Positions 21,191-62,420 of a DNA stretch of 64,000 bases are shown one piece after another. Source of the stretch: Octopus vulgaris (taxonomy: Eukaryota). The stretch spans positions 51,956,001 through 52,020,000 of the forward strand of contig OX597825.1 in NCBI GenBank assembly GCA_951406725.2. Reading direction: 5' to 3'. Below the pieces are notes generated by a model. The model saw nothing but the letters and a program-made list of their open reading frames with translations, had not been told where the DNA came from and made no database searches. Numbering within the stretch: the first letter of the stretch is position 1; each line of letters opens with the position of its first letter. Both the position numbers and the translations under genes were made by a program.

Positions 21191-22494
21191 CAGTAAAGGA
21201 ACGACAAGGAAACAAGAAATCATGTTGTGAACTTCGTTATCTTACAGCTTTTACTGCTATTAGGTGCTACAGGAGCATTCTGATCTGTGTCACTGCTCTT
21301 TATAGCAGAAACACTTGTTAGCTAGTGAAGTTCATTGCATAATTTCCTGTTCCCTTGTCATTTATTTAATTTCCTGTTATACTCTGCATTTGACTATTGC
21401 TTAATGCTAAAGCATATGCATATTGCATTCCAGATTATTAGTATCACTGTGCCTAAGTGAAACACACACACACACAAACACACACATGGATGAATAAGGG
21501 CACAAAATGAATAGGAACATCCCTCTTCCAAAGATATGAAAAACCATCGCCAATAAAGAACTGAGTCACCTTTAACTCATTCCTCTTCTGCATACAAAGT
21601 TTTCCTAACTTGCATGTAAAACTCTTTTACCTGAAAAGCAAACATTCCTATATTTCCTAGGTATCTTTTAGTCATTTGTTAGCATTGTTTTTAACAAACC
21701 ATTTGGACACTTTAGTATTCCTTCTCTACCCTCCTCCACAAATAACACTTAGTTTATTTTGTTTCCTTTGAGATTTCTAGGGGTTTATGTAAACTGTCTG
21801 ATCAGAAAAATAAAACTCAAGAATTTTAGGTGTGTACATCTTTGTGAGGAACTTCCATCATTCACTTCTATTTTTGTCAGAGGTCATTTTTGTCTTGATT
21901 CTTTTTTACTGACATTAGTGGTCTCCTAATTTATCCAGTTTCCAACTTACTTTCCATTGCAGCAAAACATTGGGGTGGAATGGTTGCTCAGAGTCTCTGA
22001 ACAATATCCTGCAGGAGAAAGACTTCACATCTCACAGTTTTGCATTCATCAACTCATGTGTTTAGCAGAATTATCAATGAAAAAATGCAGCAATGTCTCT
22101 CTTGTTCCCAACTTTCTTCTCCAGTGTTAACACTTCTCAACTTAAACGATTGATAACTTGGTATGTTCTCAGTTTGCTTCCAGTTGTGTTAAGTGTCTTA
22201 CACAATAGAAGCCAACAAGCCTGAGTTTATTCATTAAAACTCATAGAGCAGACCATCCAAACCAAGCAGTTTGCAATCTCATGCTGCTCGATCATGACGA
22301 AGCTGCTGTTACTTTATTTTTTAAAGAAACTGCCAAATATTTCTGCAGAAGCTACAATAGGATCTAAAATTCAAAGTTTCCATTCCATTCTACTATTTGC
22401 CCTAAAAGAGTTAGGCAAAGTATTGCTGGGAAATTGAACACATCTAAATTGAATTTAACAGTACATATATTGGCTCGTGGGTTCACAGTTGCGA

Positions 22495-22730
22495 GTGTCA
22501 TGCAAAAGCACCAACATTGGTGCTGTGCAAAAGCATCTGTACCAGTGCCCTGTAAAAGCACCCATGCTGGTGCCATGTAAAAGCACCTGTGCTAGTACCA
22601 CATATAAACACCCATACTGGTACCACATACAAGCACTCATGCTGGTGCCATGTAAAAGCACCCAAACCAGTGAAAGAGCATTCTCACTGATGCTACATAA
22701 AGTCACCTATGCTAGCACTATGTAAACACT
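22495..22730. repeat. Degenerate ~26-bp tandem repeat (atgctggtgccatgtaaaagcac)
   Basis: About eight diverged units. The same motif occurs in the RTE 3' UTR and RTE-tailed repeats elsewhere in the window. Confidence 0.65.
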
Positions 22731-30235: not shown

Positions 30236-30700
30236 CTATTTGTAACTAAGAATTAGGTCATTCCATTCATTAAGGCAATCACTGTATTGCATCATTGATA
30301 ATACTTCTGTGATGCAGAGATTGCATTTGTTGCTATAACAATTATACAGTTTGGTATGGATAATGGGAAACCATTTTAAATTGTATAGAACTGAGTTTTG
30401 TTTAACATTATGAATGAGCCTAGATAAAGAAGTACTGTTTATTTTTGCTTGAGATTTAAAGCTAGAATAGGGATTACCGATTCTGGCCTTGTAGATGGTG
30501 CTAGATAATCTGATATATACATATTTAGAATCTTCTGTGGATACAATGCATTTACATATCATATTTTTTGTGAGGCATCTATTTTCTGAGAGACAAGAGG
30601 TAGGATGTCTACAACCACATAAGAATCTAGAAGATGGTAAAGTGAATTTTGCGGGGATATAATTACCTGGGGTTAACCTGGTGTTATATGTCTTATCCAC
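30236..30700 (-). mobile_element. Penelope-like element relic, C-terminal GIY-YIG endonuclease region
   Basis: CLTKNMICKCIV...YVYIRLSSTIYKARIGNPYSSFK...STSLSRLIH...YNLKW...KCNLCITE...CLNEWNDL follows the PLE endonuclease C-terminal pattern, with catalytic motifs degraded. The element probably extends over ~29100-31170. Confidence 0.7.
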
Positions 30701-31252
30701 CACTGCTATATATATATAATGTAATGAGCAAAACTAAGAAAAAGACAAAATAATAGGACAACTTTTGACAAAGGTGTTATTTGAATAATAATTGAGAGGA
30801 AGCAAAAGAGTCTTTAACAGTTTTAATGCTAGTCTTTCAACAGAAAAAGACAAGAAGGTGAACAATAGGAAGAAAGGTGGTGGAAATAATGTTTTGGGCT
30901 CAGGTGGTAATGCAAAGCTAGTTAAGAAGAATGGAGGAGGTGGGCTGATATGCTCATGTACAGAAAGGCAACCATGTAGAGAGATGGGAATAGGGGACCG
31001 GCTATGGAAGTGTTGTTGTTTTTTGGGGAAATGTCGAGGTGTAGGAGTACAGCATGAGGGTGTTGAGAGGACAGTGAGCAGATGTTAATGTGATGTAGGT
31101 GAGAGGAAGGGGTAGAGGAGGTGAAAGAGAGGGTAAGAAAACTAATGAATTAAAGAGTATAGTTGGTGACAAATATGTATGTAGGTATGTATGTATGTAT
31201 GTATGTATGTATGTATGTATGTATGTATGTATGTATGTATGCATGTATATGC

Positions 31253-31288
<36 letters not shown>

Positions 31289-31408
31289 ACAATCAAGGAA
31301 CGGCCATAATAGGCCATTCACCCACTAGAAATAACAGCCAAAGCTTCAACCGCAAATAAAAATTAATTCCGTAAACCAGGAGAAAATTTAAAAAACATTT
31401 ACCCTGTA

Positions 31409-31515
31409 ATTTCTTATACGATATACCGTTTCATCTGCTGATTAATGGTAAACTAACCTGATTAAATTAAATCAAGCCAATCTTCCACAGGCCCTCAGAT
31501 TCTTCAGTAAGAAAT
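31409..31515 (-). ncRNA. Type I hammerhead ribozyme motif
   Basis: Reverse complement of the motif (atttctta tacgatataccg tttc atctg ... cagat tcttcag taagaaat). Confidence 0.85.
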
Positions 31516-31899
31516 AGCCCAAGTCGGAACAGATATTTTCACGAGGCATTTCCGACCTTGCCAAGTTTATATCTGACCTAAAATTTTCAAATCGTCGCAC
31601 TCGCGCCAAATTTATCGGCAGCAAATAAATATAAGCCGTCGATTCCATTACGGAATTAACCAGAAAATTCATAATTAATCAATATAGGGTGGCAAAAAAA
31701 TTTTGTAGAATTCTTTTGCCACCAGCGGCCTAGTGGGAAAAAATTAAATAGTCATAGACCATTTTTAAGTTCAACATCAACAATCAAGGAACGGCCATAA
31801 TAGGCCATTCACCCACTAGAAATAACAGCCAAAGCTTCAACCGCAAATAAAAATTAATTCCGTAAACCAGGAGAAAATTTAAAAAACATTTACCCTGTA

Positions 31900-32006
31900 A
31901 TTTCTTATACGATATACCGTTTCATCTGCTGATTAATGGTAAACTAACCTGATTAAATTAAATCAAGCCAATCTTCCACAGGCCCTCAGATTCTTCAGTA
32001 AGAAAT
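31900..32006 (-). ncRNA. Type I hammerhead ribozyme motif
   Basis: Second minus-strand copy, 491 bp from the first. Confidence 0.85.
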
Positions 32007-32392
32007 AGCCCAAGTCGGAACAGATATTTTCACGAGGCATTTCCGACCTTGCCAAGTTTATATCTGACCTAAAATTTTCAAATCGTCGCACTCGCGCCAA
32101 ATTTATCGGCAGCAAATAAATATAAGCCGTCGATTCCATTACGGAATTAACCAGAAAATTCATAATTAATCAATATAGGGTGGCAAAAAAAAATTTGTAG
32201 AATTCTTTTGCCACCAGCGGCCTAGTGGGAAAAAAATTAAATAGTCATAGACCATTTTTAAGTTCAACATCAACAATCAAGGAACGGCCATAATAGGCCA
32301 TTCACCCACTAGAAATAACAGCCAAAGCTTCAACCGCAAATAAAAATTAATTCCGTAAACCAGGAGAAAATTTAAAAAACATTTACCCTGTA

Positions 32393-32499
32393 ATTTCTTA
32401 TACGATATACCGTTTCATCTGCTGATTAATGGTAAACTAACCTGATTAAATTAAATCAAGCCAATCTTCCACAGGCCCTCAGATTCTTCAGTAAGAAAT
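32393..32499 (-). ncRNA. Type I hammerhead ribozyme motif
   Basis: Third minus-strand copy, next to the palindrome centre. Confidence 0.85.
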
Positions 32500-32547
32500 A
32501 GCCCAGGTCGGAAATGCCTCGTGAAAATATCTGTTCCGACTTGGGCT

Positions 32548-32654
32548 ATTTCTTACTGAAGAATCTGAGGGCCTGTGGAAGATTGGCTTGATTTAATTTA
32601 ATCAGGTTAGTTTACTATTAATCAGCAGATGAAACGGTATATCGTATAAGAAAT
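32548..32654 (+). ncRNA. Type I hammerhead ribozyme motif
   Basis: Stem I atttctta (32548-55) / taagaaat (32647-54); core CTGAAGA (32556-62); stem II atctg...cagat (32563-32630); GAAA (32631-34); short palindromic stem III cggtatatcg; GTA triplet with predicted cleavage after A32646. Confidence 0.85.
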
Positions 32655-33037
32655 TACAGGGTAAATGTTTTTAAATTTTCTCCTGGTTTACGGAATTAAT
32701 TTTTATTTGCGGTTGAAGCTTTGGCTGTTATTTCTAGTGGGTGAATGGCCTATTATGGCCGTTCCTTTATTGTTGATGTTGAACTTAAAAATGGTCTATG
32801 ACTATTTAATTTTTTCCCACTAGGCCGCTGGTGGCAAAAGAATTCTACAAAATTTTTTTGCCACCCTATATTGATTAATTATGAATTTTCTGGTTAATTC
32901 CGTAATGGAATCGACGGCTTATATTTATTTGCTGCCGATAAATTTGGCGCGAGTGCGACGATTTGAAAATTTTAGGTCAGATATAAACTTGGCAAGGTCG
33001 GAAATGCCTCGTGAAAATATCTGTTCCGACTTGGGCT

Positions 33038-33144
33038 ATTTCTTACTGAAGAATCTGAGGGCCTGTGGAAGATTGGCTTGATTTAATTTAATCAGGTTAG
33101 TTTACCATTAATCAGCAGATGAAACGGTATATCGTATAAGAAAT
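33038..33144 (+). ncRNA. Type I hammerhead ribozyme motif
   Basis: Same motif 490 nt downstream of the 32548 copy; predicted cleavage after A33136. Confidence 0.85.
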
Positions 33145-34298
33145 TACAGGGTAAATGTTTTTTAAATTTTCTCCTGGTTTACGGAATTAATTTTTATTTG
33201 CGGTTGAAGCTTTGGCTGTTATTTCTAGTGGGTGAATGGCCTATTATGGCCGTTCCTTGATTGTTGATGTTGAACTTAAAAATGGTCTATGACTATTTAA
33301 TTTTTTCCCACTAGGCCGCTGGTGGCAAAAGAATTCTACAAAATTTTTTTTTTGCCACCCTATATTGATTAATTATATATATATATATATATATAGTCGG
33401 AGAGTGTCATATTTCTCCAGATAAACACAACCATCCTCAAGGATAACAATATCTGTTTCAACACACTATTTCACATCAAGAATCTTGCAAAACACATGCA
33501 CACACACACACACACACACACATACACACACACATGTATGTGGCAGGGGGCAGGTAGGTAGGTAGGTAGATAATCAACATTGGTTGTTCATAAAAAATAT
33601 TTAACAATTATTTCTTTACAAAGGAAAGGTTGCTTTCTACATGGTACAATTACGATAAGAATAGTAAAAGCTTGTATATTGAATTTTAAAAATAAGTCTA
33701 GCATATTTTGATAACTCTACTGCCACACTGGATATGTGATGTTATATATTATATGTTGTACTTCTTTAACTGAAATTCCCTGCATTTTAAGATTAACATT
33801 TAGTAACATAAGCAAGTGCTCCAATGATGAAGAAAGAAAATTAATTTGTATGTTGGTGTAGGTGGGTGTGTGAATGTACAAATATCTATGAATGTATGTA
33901 TAATAACATGTTCACACATGTATATATTGGGAATACACTTATGTCTAATGTCTGTTTCAAATATTCTACAGTATGCCAACACACATGCACACACACAGGC
34001 ACATATATGTATATGTCTGTGGTTTTCCTTGCTTACAGTCTGTCCCCTGCACCCCCCCCCCACCACCACCAGCTGTGCATTCCTAACTTTCCAGGCTTGT
34101 GGGTGCAGTGCCACAAAAAAGCACCCGCACAGGTGCCACATAAATACATGAATTCTGGTGCTGTATTAAAGCTTCCAGTATACTCTGTAAAGAAGTTGGT
34201 GTTAAGGATGACAGCCCTTCAGCTTGCCAGCACCTGTCAAATCGTCCAACTCATGCCAGTATAGAAAAGAGACATTAAATGATATATATATATATATC

Positions 34299-34639
34299 AA
34301 AGTAATAAAGTTAATGTCTGGTCAGAGTGACCAATGGTTTTGCATCCATAAAAAGAACGACTCATCAGTCTCTAGCCTGAAGACAAAATTAACTCTTCAC
34401 CTCTGAGAGGCAGAATAACGTTATGGTCATCTGTCAATTGGTTATCAGAGAATAAAATGTCTGGCATTCCCTTAGACCAACTATTTATGGACCTGGAGAG
34501 GGGAATAAGGAATCTATCCCTTGGGCTGCTATTAATTTTGTCTTCAGGCTAGAGTCTGATGAGTTGTCCATGAAACTATAACCTTCATGGATGTGAAACC
34601 ATTGGTCATTTTACAGCCAGACATTAACTTTATTACTTT
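34299..34639. mobile_element. Fold-back element with ~100-bp inverted arms, each carrying a hammerhead motif (PLE pseudo-LTR-like)
   Basis: aaagtaataaagttaatgtctgg...cctgaagacaaaattaa (34299-34393) is an imperfect inverted copy of ttaattttgtcttcagg...ccagacattaactttattacttt (34532-34639). Preceded by (TA)n. Confidence 0.7.
34550..34613 (+). ncRNA. Type I hammerhead ribozyme motif (older, G-U-weakened stem I)
   Basis: tagagt CTGATGA gt-tgtccatgaa-actataacc-ttcatggatg-t GAAA ccattgg TC atttta; GTC triplet, predicted cleavage after C34607. The inverted arm (34323-34374, minus) keeps CTGATGA and ccattggTCactct but has GAAA changed to AAAA. Confidence 0.65.
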
Positions 34640-35119
34640 ACTGCTCTGTACTTTGGAGTGTGCTTCTTTTTCAGATATATATGTTGACAATATATATATA
34701 TATATATATATATACTCTTTCAATTTCAGAATTACAACTATTTAGCGGTTTGAGTTTGGCTGCTCTTTCTAGTGAGTCGAATGCCCTATTATGGCCATTC
34801 CTTATATTGTTGAAGATATATATAAATATATATATATATCCATTCACTGATACAGTTTATAAACAAAAAAAATAAATCTATGGTAATTAAGACCTCAGTT
34901 AACAACTAGTTGTTAAACTATTCCAGCATGTTATTACATTGCAGTAAATCAAAGTGGAAATGGTTTACATGACTATACATAATAGGGTAAAATGATCAAG
35001 ATCAACATATTTAGCATAAATGAAGGAAAATACAGATTTCACATACAGTGCATACTTAAAATGTTTCATTGAGATAAACATAAATTAAATATATGTTGCA
35101 TAATTGTAACAAATAATTC

Positions 35120-56483: not shown

Positions 56484-59268
56484 TCATCATCATCATCATC
56501 ATCGTTTAACGTCCGTTCTCCATGCTAGCATGGGTTGGACGGTTCGACCGGGGATCTGGGAAGCCAGAAGGCTGCACCAGGCTCCAGTCTTATCTGGCAG
56601 TGTTTCTACAGCTGGATGCCCTTCCTAACGCCAACCACTCCATGAGTGTAGTGGGTGCTTTTTACGTGCCACCTGCACAGGTGCCAGGCGAGGCTGGCAA
56701 CGACCACGGTCGGATTGGTGTATTTTATGTGCCACCGGCACGGAAGCCAGACGAGGCGGTGCTGGCATCGGCCACGAGTCGGATGGTGCTTTTTACGTAC
56801 CACCAGACCAGGGATTCTGGCTGGTTCAATTTGATTTCGATTTCGCTTGCCCCAACATGTCTTCGCAAGCAAGGGGGTTGGCATGGGTGCTTGTTGTACG
56901 GTCAGATTGGTGTATTTTACGTGCCACCGGCACGGAAGCCAGTGGAGGCGGCACTGGCATCGGCCACGAGTCGGATAGTGCTTTTTACGTACCACCAGAC
57001 CAGGGAACCTGGCTGGTTCAATTCGATTTCGCTTGCCCCAACATGTCTTCGCAAGCAAGGGGGTTGGCATGGGTGCCTGTCGTACGGTCAGATTGGTGTA
57101 TTTTACGTGCCACCGGCATAGAAGCCAGTGGAGGCGGCGCTGGCATCGGCCACCAGTCGGATAGTGCTTTTACGTACCACCAGACCAGGGGTCCTGGCTG
57201 GTTCAATTCGATTTTGACTTCGATTTCGCTTGCCCCAACATGTCTTCGCAAGCAAAGGGGGTTGGCATGGGTGCCTGTCGTCGGATGAGGTTCTATATCG
57301 ACTTCGCTTGCCTCAACAGGTCTTTGTGTCCAAGGGAGGAAAGGCATTCATAAATGGGCTGGGCTCACTTGTCCTGCCTGGTCTTCTCACGTACAGAATA
57401 TTTCCAAAGGTCTCGGTCGCTGGTCATTTCCTCAGTGAGGCCTAAAGTTCGAAGGTCGTGCTTCACCACCTCGTCCCAGGTTTTCCTGGGTCTACCTCTT
57501 CCATGGGTTCCCTCAACTGCTAAGGATTGGCACTTTCTCACACACCTATCTTCATCCATTCTCGCCACATGACCATACCAGCGCAATCGTCTCTCTTGCA
57601 CACCACAACTGATGCCTCTTAGGTACAACATTTCTCTCAAGGTGCTAACGCTCTGTCGAGTATGTACACTGACATTACACATCCATCGGAGCATACTGGC
57701 TTCATTCCTCACGAGCTTACGCATGTCCTCGGCAGTCACGGCCCATGTTTCACTGCCATGTAGCATCGCTGTTCGTACACACGCATCATACAGTCTGCCT
57801 TTTACTCTGAGCGAGAGGCCTTTAGTCACCAGCAGAGGTAAGAGCTCCCTAAACTTTGCCCAGGCTATTCTTATTCTAGCAGTTACACTTTCAGCGCACC
57901 CCCCCCCACTACTGACTTGGTCACCTAGATAACGGAAGCTATCAACTACTTCTAGTTTTTCCCCTTGGAAAGTGACTGAAGTTATTTTCTGCAGATTTTC
58001 GGAGGTTAATGCTCCTGAGCATCTGCCACATACAAAAACTATCTTCCCAATTAGCCTACCTTTGACATTGCTGCACCTCTTATGTGTCCATAGCTTACAC
58101 TGGGTACATCTTATAGAGTTTCTACCTACACCTTTTCTACAGATCGAGCAGGGCCATCTTCCTGAAGACATTTGTGGATTGTCTACCTTCCTACTTATTA
58201 GTACTTTGGTTTTAGCTAGGTTGACTCTAAGGCCCCTCGATTCTAAACCCTCCTTCCACACCTGGAACTTCTCCTCCAGCTCTGATAGTGACTCAGCAAT
58301 AAGAGCAAGGTCGTCAGCATAGAGGAGCTCCCAGGGACAACCTGTCTTGAATTCCTCCGTAATTGCCTGTAGGACTATGATAAATAGGAGGGGGCTGAGT
58401 ACTGAACCCTGGTGGACCCCAACCTCTACTTTGAATTCTTCTGTGTACATGTTGCTAACCCTAACCTTACTTACGGCATCTCTGTACATGGCTTGCACAG
58501 TCCTCACCAGCCATTCATCTATCCCTAGTTTCCTCATTGACCACCAGATAAGGGATCGGGGGACCCTATCAAAAGCTTTCTCCATGTCAACAAAAGCCAG
58601 GTACAGGGGCTTATCTTTGGCTAGGTATTTCTCCTGCAGCTGCCTTACCAGGAATATAGCATCCGTGGTACTTTTCCCTTGCATGAACCCAAACTGCATC
58701 TCATCTAAACTAACTCTCTCTCTAATTAGTTGGGCTATGACCCTCTCTGTAACCTTCATTACTTGATCCAACAGCTTGATACCTCTGTAATTATTTGTAT
58801 CTAAGGCATCACCTTTACCTTTGTAGCAGTTGACTAGTATGCTGCTACACCAGTCATTGGGTATGACTCCTTCGTGTATCACCTGGTTGACTATACGGGT
58901 GACTAGGTTATAGCCGACACTGCCAGATATTTTGAGCATCTCTGCAGTAATTCCTGATGGGCCTGGGGCTTTCCCTGTCTTCATGCTTCTAATTGCCTTA
59001 GCTACCACGGAACTATCAACTCGGATAGCTGGTCCCTCTGTTGGGTCAACATTCGGCAGACTCTCTTTATCCCATTCATTTTCTTTATTCAGCAACCTTT
59101 CATAGTGGCATCTCCAAACCTCTCTCTTTGCATCCTCATTTAGCGCAAGTGAACCATCATCCATGCGAACACACTTCTCTCCTACCACATCACGATTCTC
59201 TTTCACACACTGTCTTGCAACACGAAATACCTCAAGTCTTTCATCCTCACGGCTCAGAACATTGGCAA
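56484..59268 (-). mobile_element. RTE-clade LINE, 5'-truncated, with 3' UTR and (GAT)n tail
   Basis: Long RT ORF, GC content above background, 3' end ...ggacgttaaacgatgatgatg; near-identical shorter copy at 25716-26290. Confidence 0.93.
57365..59268 (-). CDS. Non-LTR retrotransposon reverse transcriptase (RTE), N-terminally truncated, endonuclease missing
   Basis: Uninterrupted ORF with KAPGPSG, NYRGIKLL, QFGF, FVDMEKAFDRV, GVHQGSVLSPLLF, LLYADD, FRYLG and RRLRWYGHV motifs. The first ~16 aa of the ORF-track protein are probably flanking DNA. Confidence 0.9.
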
Positions 59269-59874
59269 TATAAGATAATATATTATAATGAAATGATAGA
59301 ATAAGTAAAATGTCCATTTTGATTGAACTAGTACATTCAAGCTGGATAAACTGTGTGCCTTAAATACACCTGTATAGGCTCCAGAATGTTAATTTTGGCA
59401 AACTGTATTCTGATCAATCAGTATGTGGCTTTACTAAATTACTGAAGTTGATTGGTGTTTTGTTTAGGCATCACAGTTTGTTGAACATATCAAGAGACCT
59501 TTATTTTGACCCTGGCCAAAGCAGTAATTGTTGGGCTATTTTTAGAAATGTAAACAACATTTCCTTGGGATTTTTACATTTCAATTATCATCATCACCAA
59601 TATGATCTCCTTTATTATTGTTGTCATTGTTGATGGTGGTGGTGGTGTTGGTGGTGGTGGTTTGGTGATGGCAGTAGTGGTTGTGGTGATGGTAGGAGTA
59701 GCTATGCTAATAGAACTTTAAGTCCAAAAATAAGATTATTTTTACTGACCTTTCTTTTGACCTAGCTAGTATTTTCCTGCTATGGTCATCATTAGCATCT
59801 TTAGTATTGTTGTTGTTGTTAGTGGTAGTGGTCATAGCAGTAGAAAAAGTACCTCTGAATATTAGTATTATTCT

Positions 59875-62420
59875 TTATTTAGCTTGGGTTGGAATTTATT
59901 AATAAAGTTCTTTTCTTTGATTTTAGTCTCAATTTCACTTGGACTGTGTAGTTTGTAGAATGGAAATATTATGAATATCTTTTTACCACATGTTGCTAGA
60001 TGGTTACTCAAAGGTATCTGATGGACATCTGGGTCTCTAATTTGCTGTCAGTGCACACATGAATGTTCTGGTAGAGCATTTCCAGTATGACCCACATAGA
60101 GTTGTTCCCAATTTGAGCATTTGATGAAGTAAATTTAATTTATGCCTTTGCAGTTCATATAAGTGTTGGTGAATATTTTTCCAGTTTTTGTGTTCATATA
60201 GGGCAGTATGTATGAATTGGCATGTGCCACATCGACTCTCATTGCCTTTAGATACATTGAATGATTGATCTTTATTACTAAGTTCAAACTTTGCCTTTGT
60301 TAAGAATTTTTTCAAGTTTTTAGGCTGTCTTTTACTCAATCTGTGATTATATCTTTTATTTCATTACTTTGAGTGTTGATTGGCAGGTTTACTTTAACAA
60401 TGTTGAAGATATTCTGGTGACATGGGTTGTGTGTCACTATAAATGGTATGACTTGTTCCTGTTTTCCTCTTCTTGTTGTATTTTTATAGCCTGCTGTATG
60501 CCATTTTCTATAAGTAGAGACAGGTTTGAGCAAAAATTCTCTTAGTTCTCTTAGGTGTTTGTTCCTGATATTTGCATCTTCTACAATGGTACAAATTCTT
60601 CTGGCTAGGCAGTATGGGATGTTGTGTTTTGCATGTGGTGGATGGTACGACTTAAAATCCAGGTACTGATATGTGTCTGTGTGTTTGTAGTATATATCTG
60701 TGGTAATTACCATTATATCTAAGAATGGTAATTTGGGACTACTCATTTGCTTTGTAAATTGGAGAGATAGGTGTAGGTTGTTCAGGAGGATATTGAAATC
60801 TTCCAGAGTATTTAAAGATTCTGTCTAGATTGGGAAACAAGCATCAAGGTATCTCTTCCATGACTTTTCAATATATTTTCTAAATTCAGTGTTATAGTTT
60901 TCTTCTACTCCTTGGTAGTAGTTGTTCTAAATATTCTATTACAGAATTTTCGTAAACAGGAGCAAACCTCATTCCCATTGCTGTGCCTTTAATTTGGATG
61001 TTATTCTTCCCAATGAAGAAGAATGTGTTGTTTTCCAGAATAAGTCTAATTGTGTCTAATATAAATGGCACTGTGAATTTGTTGGGGATCACTTCTCTAT
61101 GTTTTTCTACCCAGTATTTAATTGCTTTTATTCCTAAATCATGTGGAATATTGGTGTAAAGAATTACCTCATCAAAATTAAATAGAAGTGAATTTGTTTC
61201 AGTTGTTTCAGGAAGATGGGACAGGAGGTTGATGTCATCCTGGATGAAATTGGGTATGTAGGTACATAGTGGTTTCAAAACAATGCCAATAAAATTTCTT
61301 AGACAGTGGGTAATTTTATGTACATACTTTCTTGTTCTTTTACCGCATCTTTTGATTTATGTATTTTTGATAAGTTGTAGAAATTGCTGGGTTTTGGCCC
61401 GAAACGGTGATGAAGTCTCTTTCATTATCAGTAAGTGAGTTGTGGTGTTTTGAAACCAGATTGTTGATATTCTTCATGATGTGGTAGTCTATATTTGTAG
61501 GTATTTTACAATAGAAGGCTGTGTCCTTCAGTTGGTCCTCAACCAAATCCTTATAGTATTCTGCATCCATAATAACAATTGCACCCCCTTTATCTGCTTG
61601 TTTAATTGTTTTGTATACATTAAGTGCAGACATTTCAGATTTGTTAATGTTTGGCCTAACATTAGTATTGCGTCTAAGGGGAAATTTTGACAGGATATCA
61701 ATGTCCTGGTGAAGATAGTTATTTCTTCCTTTTGGTGGGGTGAAATTTCATTTATTCTTTACTAAGGATTCATCAGTCACATTACTTTTTTTAGTGAAGA
61801 ATTCTACAAGTCATAACTTGCAAAAGAATTTTTGGATATCCTCCTTTAGTTCTTGGTGGTTGACTGTTGGTGTAGGTGTGAATTTCCTTTTGACGGAAGT
61901 TGGATTTCATCATTGTCAAGATCTCTTTTGTACAAATTAATTATTTTAGGATCTATATGTTCAGTCGTTTTGGGTATGTTTCCTCTTGGATTTTTTTTCT
62001 TTCTCAGGTGTTTGTTGTCCTGACATTAAAAAATGGATTTTTCTCTGTTTATGACTTATGTTCCTCTTGATGTTTGCTTGATGGACTTTGTGTTTTGGTT
62101 GTGGTATTTTACTTGGTTTCTTTATGTTTTCTGTCCTGATTTTGGTATTATGTATACTGTTATCAGTTTCTTGTTAGTATTGTTTTTAACAACCTGAGGG
62201 AATGATCTGGGTTTACTTCAAGATCTAGATTGGTTTTTTGCCCTGTTTCTTGTAGATAATCTCTGTTGGGATCTTGAAAATGATCTCTTGTTACTTCTAC
62301 TACTAATAGTCTGATCAAAGGAACATCTATCTTGTTTGTACTTTTTGTTCATATTGTGTGCATTAGGGTGTTTGCATACAAAAAGGGAAGAGTTCTTACC
62401 CCAGTTCATCTTCAATTCAC
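59875..62420 (-). mobile_element. Decayed Penelope-like element (RT plus GIY-YIG region)
   Basis: Frameshifted fragments IKQADKGGAIVIMD, LYTNIPHDLG, ILENNTFFF..IQIKGTAMG, LPFLDIMV..DIYYKHTDTYQYLDFKSYHP, CGTCQFI and terminal KEKNFINKFQPKLN are typical of the PLE ORF. Confidence 0.85.

Follow-up and report, generated by a model that had tools for sequence, protein, structure and literature searches.

The element at positions 31285–33376 of the window (the whole 64-kb stretch of octopus DNA analyzed here) appears, from its sequence, to be one insertion of a young, dispersed, non-coding repeat that has the testable traits of a non-LTR retrozyme. Its most informative feature, overlooked by the original prediction and present family-wide, is that the two arms of the palindrome end at two different fixed termini, one per arm. 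Our preferred reading, to which we assign a probability of about 65%, is that a non-LTR retrozyme was inserted in (TA)n by the reverse transcriptase (RT)/GIY-YIG protein of a Neptune-type Penelope-like element (PLE), priming from both cut strands and probably using a circular RNA as template. The non-LTR retrozyme class itself is already known; what would be new relative to it are the paired fixed termini, the long tail, and the ends at the ribozyme site. Published systems are cited below from the available parts of their text.

The insertion has the arrangement first proposed, with 2.5 units followed by about 1.8 inverted, near-identical units between (TA)n tracts. The units are 490–493 bp long (spacings of 491, 493, and 490 in the window copy) in both arms, which match the unit at 99.3–99.7% identity and meet 5′-to-5′ with a 9-bp overlap. 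(TA)n borders both flanks, and target-site duplications are unreadable within such tracts. No frame in the element exceeds 68 codons, in keeping with the earlier description of the array as non-coding. The 490-nt monomer folds far better than shuffled sequences (z = −8.0). With unit position 1 defined as the base right after the predicted cut, the features are as follows.

31256..31284, no strand: left (TA)n target tract, read from the sequence
31285..32513, minus strand: left arm, 1,229 bp, 2.5 units; the 3′ end (31285) is terminus E1 (unit position 132), and the arm is 5′-truncated at unit position 379
31408..31516, minus strand: type I hammerhead 1, core 31507, predicted cut after 31417; the sole one predicted to be free in read-through RNA
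31899..32007, minus strand: type I hammerhead 2, core 31998, predicted cut after 31908
32392..32500, minus strand: type I hammerhead 3, core 32491, predicted cut after 32401
32505..32513, no strand: inversion junction, 5′-to-5′, 9-bp overlap (microhomology)
32505..33376, plus strand: right arm, 872 bp, 1.8 units; the 3′ end (33376) is terminus E2 (unit position 237), and the arm is 5′-truncated at unit position 350
32547..32655, plus strand: type I hammerhead 4, core 32556, predicted cut after 32646
32647..33136, plus strand: predicted cleaved monomer or circle, 490 nt, highly structured
33037..33145, plus strand: type I hammerhead 5, core 33046, predicted cut after 33136; 8-bp stem I, 5-bp extended stem II, 3-bp stem III
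33234..33255, plus strand: conserved hairpin upstream of terminus E1 (E1 is 33268 in that unit)
33269..33376, plus strand: stretch from after E1 (33268) to E2 (33376)
33321..33359, plus strand: conserved hairpin upstream of terminus E2, with compensatory changes in sister family B
33377..33395, no strand: right (TA)n target tract, read from the sequence

A descriptor requiring the hammerhead core and paired stems found exactly five motifs in the 64-kb window, all of them in the element, and none in each of 30 shuffles. The CUGANGA / GAAA / UH core with stems I–III is complete in all five, so that the three minus-strand and two plus-strand type I hammerheads reported previously were all recovered, and the plus cores gave the same predicted cut sites, A32646 and A33136. 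Stem II is lengthened by an AU-rich hairpin of about 58 nt that the earlier description lacked. Stem III comprises 3 bp, and its loop is self-complementary (−13.6 kcal/mol as a self-duplex). The search with hammerhead models that had been suggested as a check yielded no match: the Rfam models detected none of the motifs at the gathering threshold or up to E = 10, the likely reason being the long stem II extension. Families with such a ribozyme may therefore be under-counted. The miRNA matches in the Rfam scans were set aside as below threshold and mostly derived from the palindrome center and the TA tracts.

The unit belongs to a dispersed multicopy family, as the proposed genome-wide copy-number check was meant to reveal. 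A unit search returned 224 matches in 39 of the 838 candidate regions scored; among the 150 matches listed, identities were 96–100% and many contigs were represented. Exact pattern counts of loop III genome-wide gave 830 motifs of the window's ribozyme variant (AT form) and 1,776 of a sister variant (GC form), with single changes in only 43. Monomers, dimers, and multimers are all present among the dispersed copies. A sister family, B, is homologous to the window's family (A) over the whole unit yet clearly diverged (470-nt unit in locus L033; 744 exact loop-III motifs genome-wide; 1,807 candidates), and its copies are older and mostly shorter than a monomer. A short E1-ended fragment of family B lies in the window at 34715–34812.

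The subfamilies compared all come from one 2.8-Gb genome, that of the window. Among them, all four bases occur at N7, and A and C occur at the cleavage base H17; both are recognized free positions, and the search pattern fixed the remaining core bases. Loss of the core in other genomic copies had been named as evidence that would speak against the ribozyme; the core is kept across subfamilies, N7 and H17 alone varying. Family B likewise keeps the core and carries compensated changes in stems I, II, and III. In an alignment of 16 sequences, 10 of 33 helix pairs had changed on both sides, and 93.9% of the cells were paired compared with 30–49% when the partners were slid; the 16 sequences derive from about four subfamilies, and independent covariation events are therefore few. 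The self-complementary loop III and its AT/GC switch would suit ribozymes that work as dimers, as type I hammerheads of animals have been described to do (PMC4209133). Selection on the hammerhead shape is visible in the compensatory changes and in the confinement of variation to free core positions, and the ribozyme is predicted to be active.

We mapped 58 loci, comprising 39 from the unit search and 19 further unique loci from a 73-bp near-end query (30 of its 41 matches were fetched; overlapping fetches and two already-mapped loci were dropped). Their arm 3′ ends cluster at two points of the unit, E1 (position ~132) and E2 (~230–237), about 105 nt apart, a distance that we refer to as the tail. 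One E1 and one E2 end were present in 44 of the 47 two-armed loci; the other three have E2 twice (one locus) or one other end (two loci). The 11 single-armed loci end at E1 or at E2. Nearly all arm ends in the 58 loci abut (TA)n, which bears out the suspected (TA)n targeting. Both termini lie 13–17 nt 3′ of a hairpin conserved in families A and B, a similar CCT..ATT.TT.AT run precedes each of them, and both termini recur in the GC subfamily and in family B. The traits typical of PLE insertions, namely an inverted 5′-truncated arm, a tail at one end only, and a microsatellite target, were found in the same 44 of 47 two-armed loci. The original view of a young, non-autonomous, PLE-mobilized element agrees with this insertion signature, with the copy number, and with the covariation. 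Our literature search found neither this family nor paired fixed termini in retrozymes described, and subscription papers, Repbase/Dfam, and bioRxiv supplements may hold either.

The inner junction is unique to each locus and shows short overlaps or added bases. At six loci (L119, L133, L134, L135, L142, and L148), it is filled by reiterated T/A-run copies of unit positions ~20–33, which suggests RT slippage or telomerase-like reiteration near the 5′ end.

These data bear on whether the element is a repeat of DNA-level origin, such as a MITE-like, satellite, or fold-back repeat, whose hammerhead is relict or coincidental. Such a repeat could well be palindromic, non-coding, and without an Rfam hammerhead match, as this one is. 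However, its ends differ in sequence and are not terminal inverted repeats, the inner junction differs among loci in the manner of 5′ truncation, and the ribozyme helices carry compensatory changes with variation at free core positions. We therefore consider a DNA-level origin very improbable.

To return to an insertion by reverse transcription, the two arms of a locus usually carry the same subfamily alleles (33 of 36 informative loci; with shuffled arms, 83% disagree). The arm subtypes differ at L101, L120, and L157, which indicates that two RNA molecules are sometimes used and argues that each arm is a separate reverse transcription. It has to be asked, then, whether a single priming event could suffice, the inverted arm arising by fold-back or template switching on the first cDNA and E1 being a processing or resolution site. 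The microhomology at the junctions, a perfect fold-back palindrome at L102, the alleles that the arms mostly share, and the ascription of the PLE tail to EN-mediated resolution of an intermediate (in the available text of PMC8557442) are all compatible with this. Against it, at many loci the E1 arm exceeds the E2 arm in length and includes sequence lying past the 5′ end of the latter (1,229 versus 872 bp in the window; also L109, L122, and L157), the three mismatched loci call for two syntheses, single-armed copies stop at E1 or at E2, and the RT of a PLE starts in vitro at two internal RNA sites, one at each boundary of the tail (PMC11167929, in part). Single priming is thus an improbable account of these loci, and we retain priming from both cut strands.

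The template of this dual priming is less firmly indicated. Arms of three or more copies are homogeneous in 30 of 33 cases, the longest running to 9 units, and seven locus-private variants recur throughout both arms, in each copy. Repeated copying of a single monomer would explain this, as could homogeneous source arrays outside our sample. The same PLE enzyme and start sites could instead act on a linear multimeric transcript of a tandem array, with no circle and with a ribozyme that trims 5′ ends or is incidental. Homogeneous genomic arrays of 9–10 near-identical units exist, so that a linear multimer could be the template; one unit inside an L101 arm bears the allele of another subtype; and autonomous PLEs are copied from partial-tandem transcripts, ribozyme cleavage being dispensable for insertion in vitro and uncleaved RNA the main substrate (PMC11167929, in part). 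We also looked for RNA editing fixed in the genome, which would have favored a circle: A>G changes first made up 5 of 11 locus-private all-copy variants and, after homopolymers were masked and 19 loci added, fell to 2 of 10 compared with 4 of 76 singletons, and we dropped the argument. On the other side, the seven private variants and the homogeneous long arms are simplest if one monomer was copied round, an efficient ribozyme would be expected to process multimers as well, and circular RNAs of related retrozymes build up (PMC7229834, in part). The linear template is hence a real but rather unlikely alternative to the circular one that we favor.

The arm 5′ ends add to this picture. Of 100 such ends, 24 fall in unit positions 1–30, compared with 6.2 expected, and no 30-nt window matched that pile in 2,000 scan simulations (0/2,000); the expectation was conditioned on locus selection, with internal fragments and arms ending off E1/E2 excluded. 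Positions 1–14, upstream of a T/A palindrome, hold 12 ends compared with 2.9 expected, and exactly one of the 24 piled ends lies at position 1. Many arms cross the cleavage site, as a circle or an uncut multimer requires. The simplest reading of the pile would be run-off from ribozyme-cut RNA, and part of it could come from RT stalling at stem I or from joining at the T/A palindrome (~20–33).

The preferred reading can be set out in five steps. First, the sense strand would be transcribed, as inferred from probable-RNA contigs with sense A>G changes. Second, the tandem ribozymes would excise the ~490-nt monomer, probably as dimers held together by the palindromic loop III, and ligation of the monomer would yield a circle. 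Third, a PLE enzyme would nick both strands of a (TA)n tract, and RT would start at E1 from one 3′ end and at E2 from the other, each time just 3′ of a conserved hairpin; the termini are observed, and the enzyme is deduced. Fourth, RT would circle the template for up to 9 units or, presumably on a linear or cut template, halt near the ribozyme-made 5′ end. Fifth, the two cDNAs would be joined 5′-to-5′ through microhomology or a few added bases, as seen at the junctions, to give the palindrome.

A more specific version is tentative, and we hold it at somewhat less than even odds: the genome would preserve a legible trace of the complete retrozyme cycle. A dimeric Penelope enzyme would cut both (TA)n strands and, on a ribozyme-made circle, begin one reverse transcription per strand, at two different sites that lie 105 nt apart and are marked by hairpins; synthesis would go round up to nine times and stop when the ribozyme cleaves the template. 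The element would be recognized by RNA shape alone, with no sequence kinship to its helper. If this is true, one mechanism accounts for the PLE tail, the inverted 5′ copy, and the tandem retrozyme arrays.

We next consider the RNA. The unit is covered by contigs of seven runs guessed to be RNA, none of them recorded as such; one comes from a second organism (99% over 472 nt). The contigs had no piles of starts or ends, but contigs cannot reveal RNA ends, and a tandem junction and a circle junction share one sequence. On the ribozyme strand, A>G compared with T>C changes numbered 14:1, 23:9, and 24:8 in three runs of one study. Runs X2, X9, and X12 belong to one study and X15 to another sample. 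At 33099, 33104, 33110, and 33142, A>G accounts for 13–64% of contig depth in X9 and X12 compared with 0–1.7% in the DNA-like X15; no G was present at these four positions in the genomic copies fetched, and the changes were absent from run X4. An A>G change at 33181 was not counted as editing, since one genomic subfamily carries G at that position. These data suggest that the sense strand is transcribed and that its stem II hairpin undergoes A-to-I editing, in runs whose type is a guess.

In a transcript spanning the locus, the two arms are predicted to anneal to each other, with 89–91% of the RNA paired. The release of monomers from read-through RNA, as initially envisaged, is not favored by this model, in which the duplex would trap both plus and two of the three minus ribozymes, leaving the one with its core at 31507 free. 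Productive RNA would more probably begin inside an arm or stem from one-directional arrays, and an internal promoter in the arm may be inferred. A motif at 32930–32945 (plus strand) and its equivalents, in the unit upstream of the ribozyme, resembles what we take to be an E2F site and is a possible internal promoter; it also resembles motifs repeated in the 3′ UTR of the PLE family of L076 and L082.

The same genome holds an intact candidate helper, a PLE with a 781-aa frame encoding RT and GIY-YIG domains, which we call Neptune-like on the basis of a Cys motif located between its RT and EN domains (a trait given in the available text of PMC8557442) rather than of a tree. Ten copies of this ORF have a median identity of 99.2%. 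The elements insert in (TA)n with an optional ~38-nt tail at one end only, and locus L096 has the inverted form with one end of each kind. As side observations, L091–L100 represent a young Neptune-like PLE with an upstream frame, the 781-aa RT-EN frame, and a 3′ UTR in which CCAAT/CRE-like motifs recur, together with a variant hammerhead-like core. Copies of the retrozyme are often seen in (TA)n directly behind such PLE ends (L009, L036, L120, and L182).

A partner PLE sharing the termini of the retrozyme, which the original prediction had proposed to seek, was not found among the 70 PLE loci sampled (from 150 of 6,136 and 150 of 10,847 candidates; at least five Neptune-like families and one old family). 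Comparison by blastn of families A, B, and C with 30 and then all 70 of these loci detected no shared sequence, the only two unit matches within them being the window itself and a separate short insertion. No partner emerged from a GIY-YIG family search, from tblastn of the 781-aa ORF against the family A and B loci, or from the loose ends of contigs at 80% likeness. The element itself contains no RT and GIY-YIG ORF, and the PLE ORF pieces near its copies sit outside, in the flanks.

Several neighbors in the window deserve mention. A second (TA)n-flanked inverted-repeat element of another family, at 34298–34690, has a compact type I hammerhead (core ~34556, plus strand) and a palindromic stem III region; it is probably a truncated PLE end or another retrozyme and had no match among the 70 PLE loci. 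A minus-strand remnant at 30236–30733 resembles the C terminus of a PLE endonuclease and is possibly Naiad-like. It comes from an old decayed family with thousands of candidates, whose other copies are 33–66% identical and mostly contain stops, and it was rejected as a partner, being unlinked to the retrozyme. A decayed Neptune-like PLE occupies ~59300–61750 (minus strand) with pieces of RT, Cys motif, and GIY-YIG and a 3′ UTR like that of L064, its 3′ end being broken by an adjoining element. A 664-aa open frame at 57365–59359 (minus strand) encodes a non-LTR reverse transcriptase, presumably RTE-like. A GC-richer 186-bp tandem repeat (56654–57281) and a 25/50-bp repeat (22490–22664) both belong to common dispersed families.

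Among known insertion mechanisms, twin priming of L1 also produces 5′-to-5′ inverted arms with both 3′ ends at the target, its second priming site being variable and poly(A)-related. The octopus arms share the 5′-to-5′ arrangement, but their second site is fixed, hairpin-linked, and on a repeating template.

With the metazoan non-LTR retrozymes (PMC7229834; bioRxiv 10.64898/2026.07.22.740005; both in part), the family shares tandem non-coding monomers, a type I hammerhead in each unit, low GC, dispersal, and a proposed mobilization by PLEs. That PLE origin was put forward from co-occurrence and pLTR similarity in the bioRxiv work, where, in the parts available, eight of nine Xenopus retrozyme dimers did not cleave. 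The original prediction called the unit long for its class, which holds against the 170–400 nt of PMC7229834 but not against the 51–972 bp of the bioRxiv work, within which it falls. The octopus monomer differs from that of the mussel (490 compared with 350–390 nt) and by the ~58-nt stem II extension that the Rfam models miss. Its insertions are mostly two-armed palindromes with two fixed termini, of which the available text of both accounts has no description. No pLTR homology to a partner was found for the family among the 70 PLE loci sampled, whereas 24 of 57 Xenopus families had Repbase hits (bioRxiv 10.64898/2026.07.22.740005, in part).

The likeness to EN+ PLEs of the Neptune clade (PMC8557442 and PMC4209133, in part) extends to partial tandems, an inverted 5′-truncated copy at the 5′ end, a tail at one end, a microsatellite bias, and a type I hammerhead with a palindromic loop 3. 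Unlike these, the octopus element has no ORF, has a tail of ~105 nt compared with 30–40, and consists of two arms that are both multimers of one short unit. The Poseidon PLE of Anolis, PAc, resembles it in having two internal RT starts, downstream of the hammerhead, that bound the tail and in its AT-rich target, both strands of which the protein cleaves and extends in vitro (PMC11167929). In the available text of that study, PAc showed no strand bias between the start sites in vitro and no RNA ends at the ribozyme site, whereas the octopus loci nearly always have one of each terminus and their genomic 5′ ends pile up just after that site.

How retrozymes return to the genome and how PLEs give one-tailed tandem and inverted insertions are stated to be open in the available text of PMC7229834, PMC8557442, and bioRxiv 10.64898/2026.07.22.740005. 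The octopus family offers a minimal test substrate for both questions: it is very young, 490 nt long, and protein-free, with two fixed starts, thousands of copies, and an intact candidate helper in the same genome.
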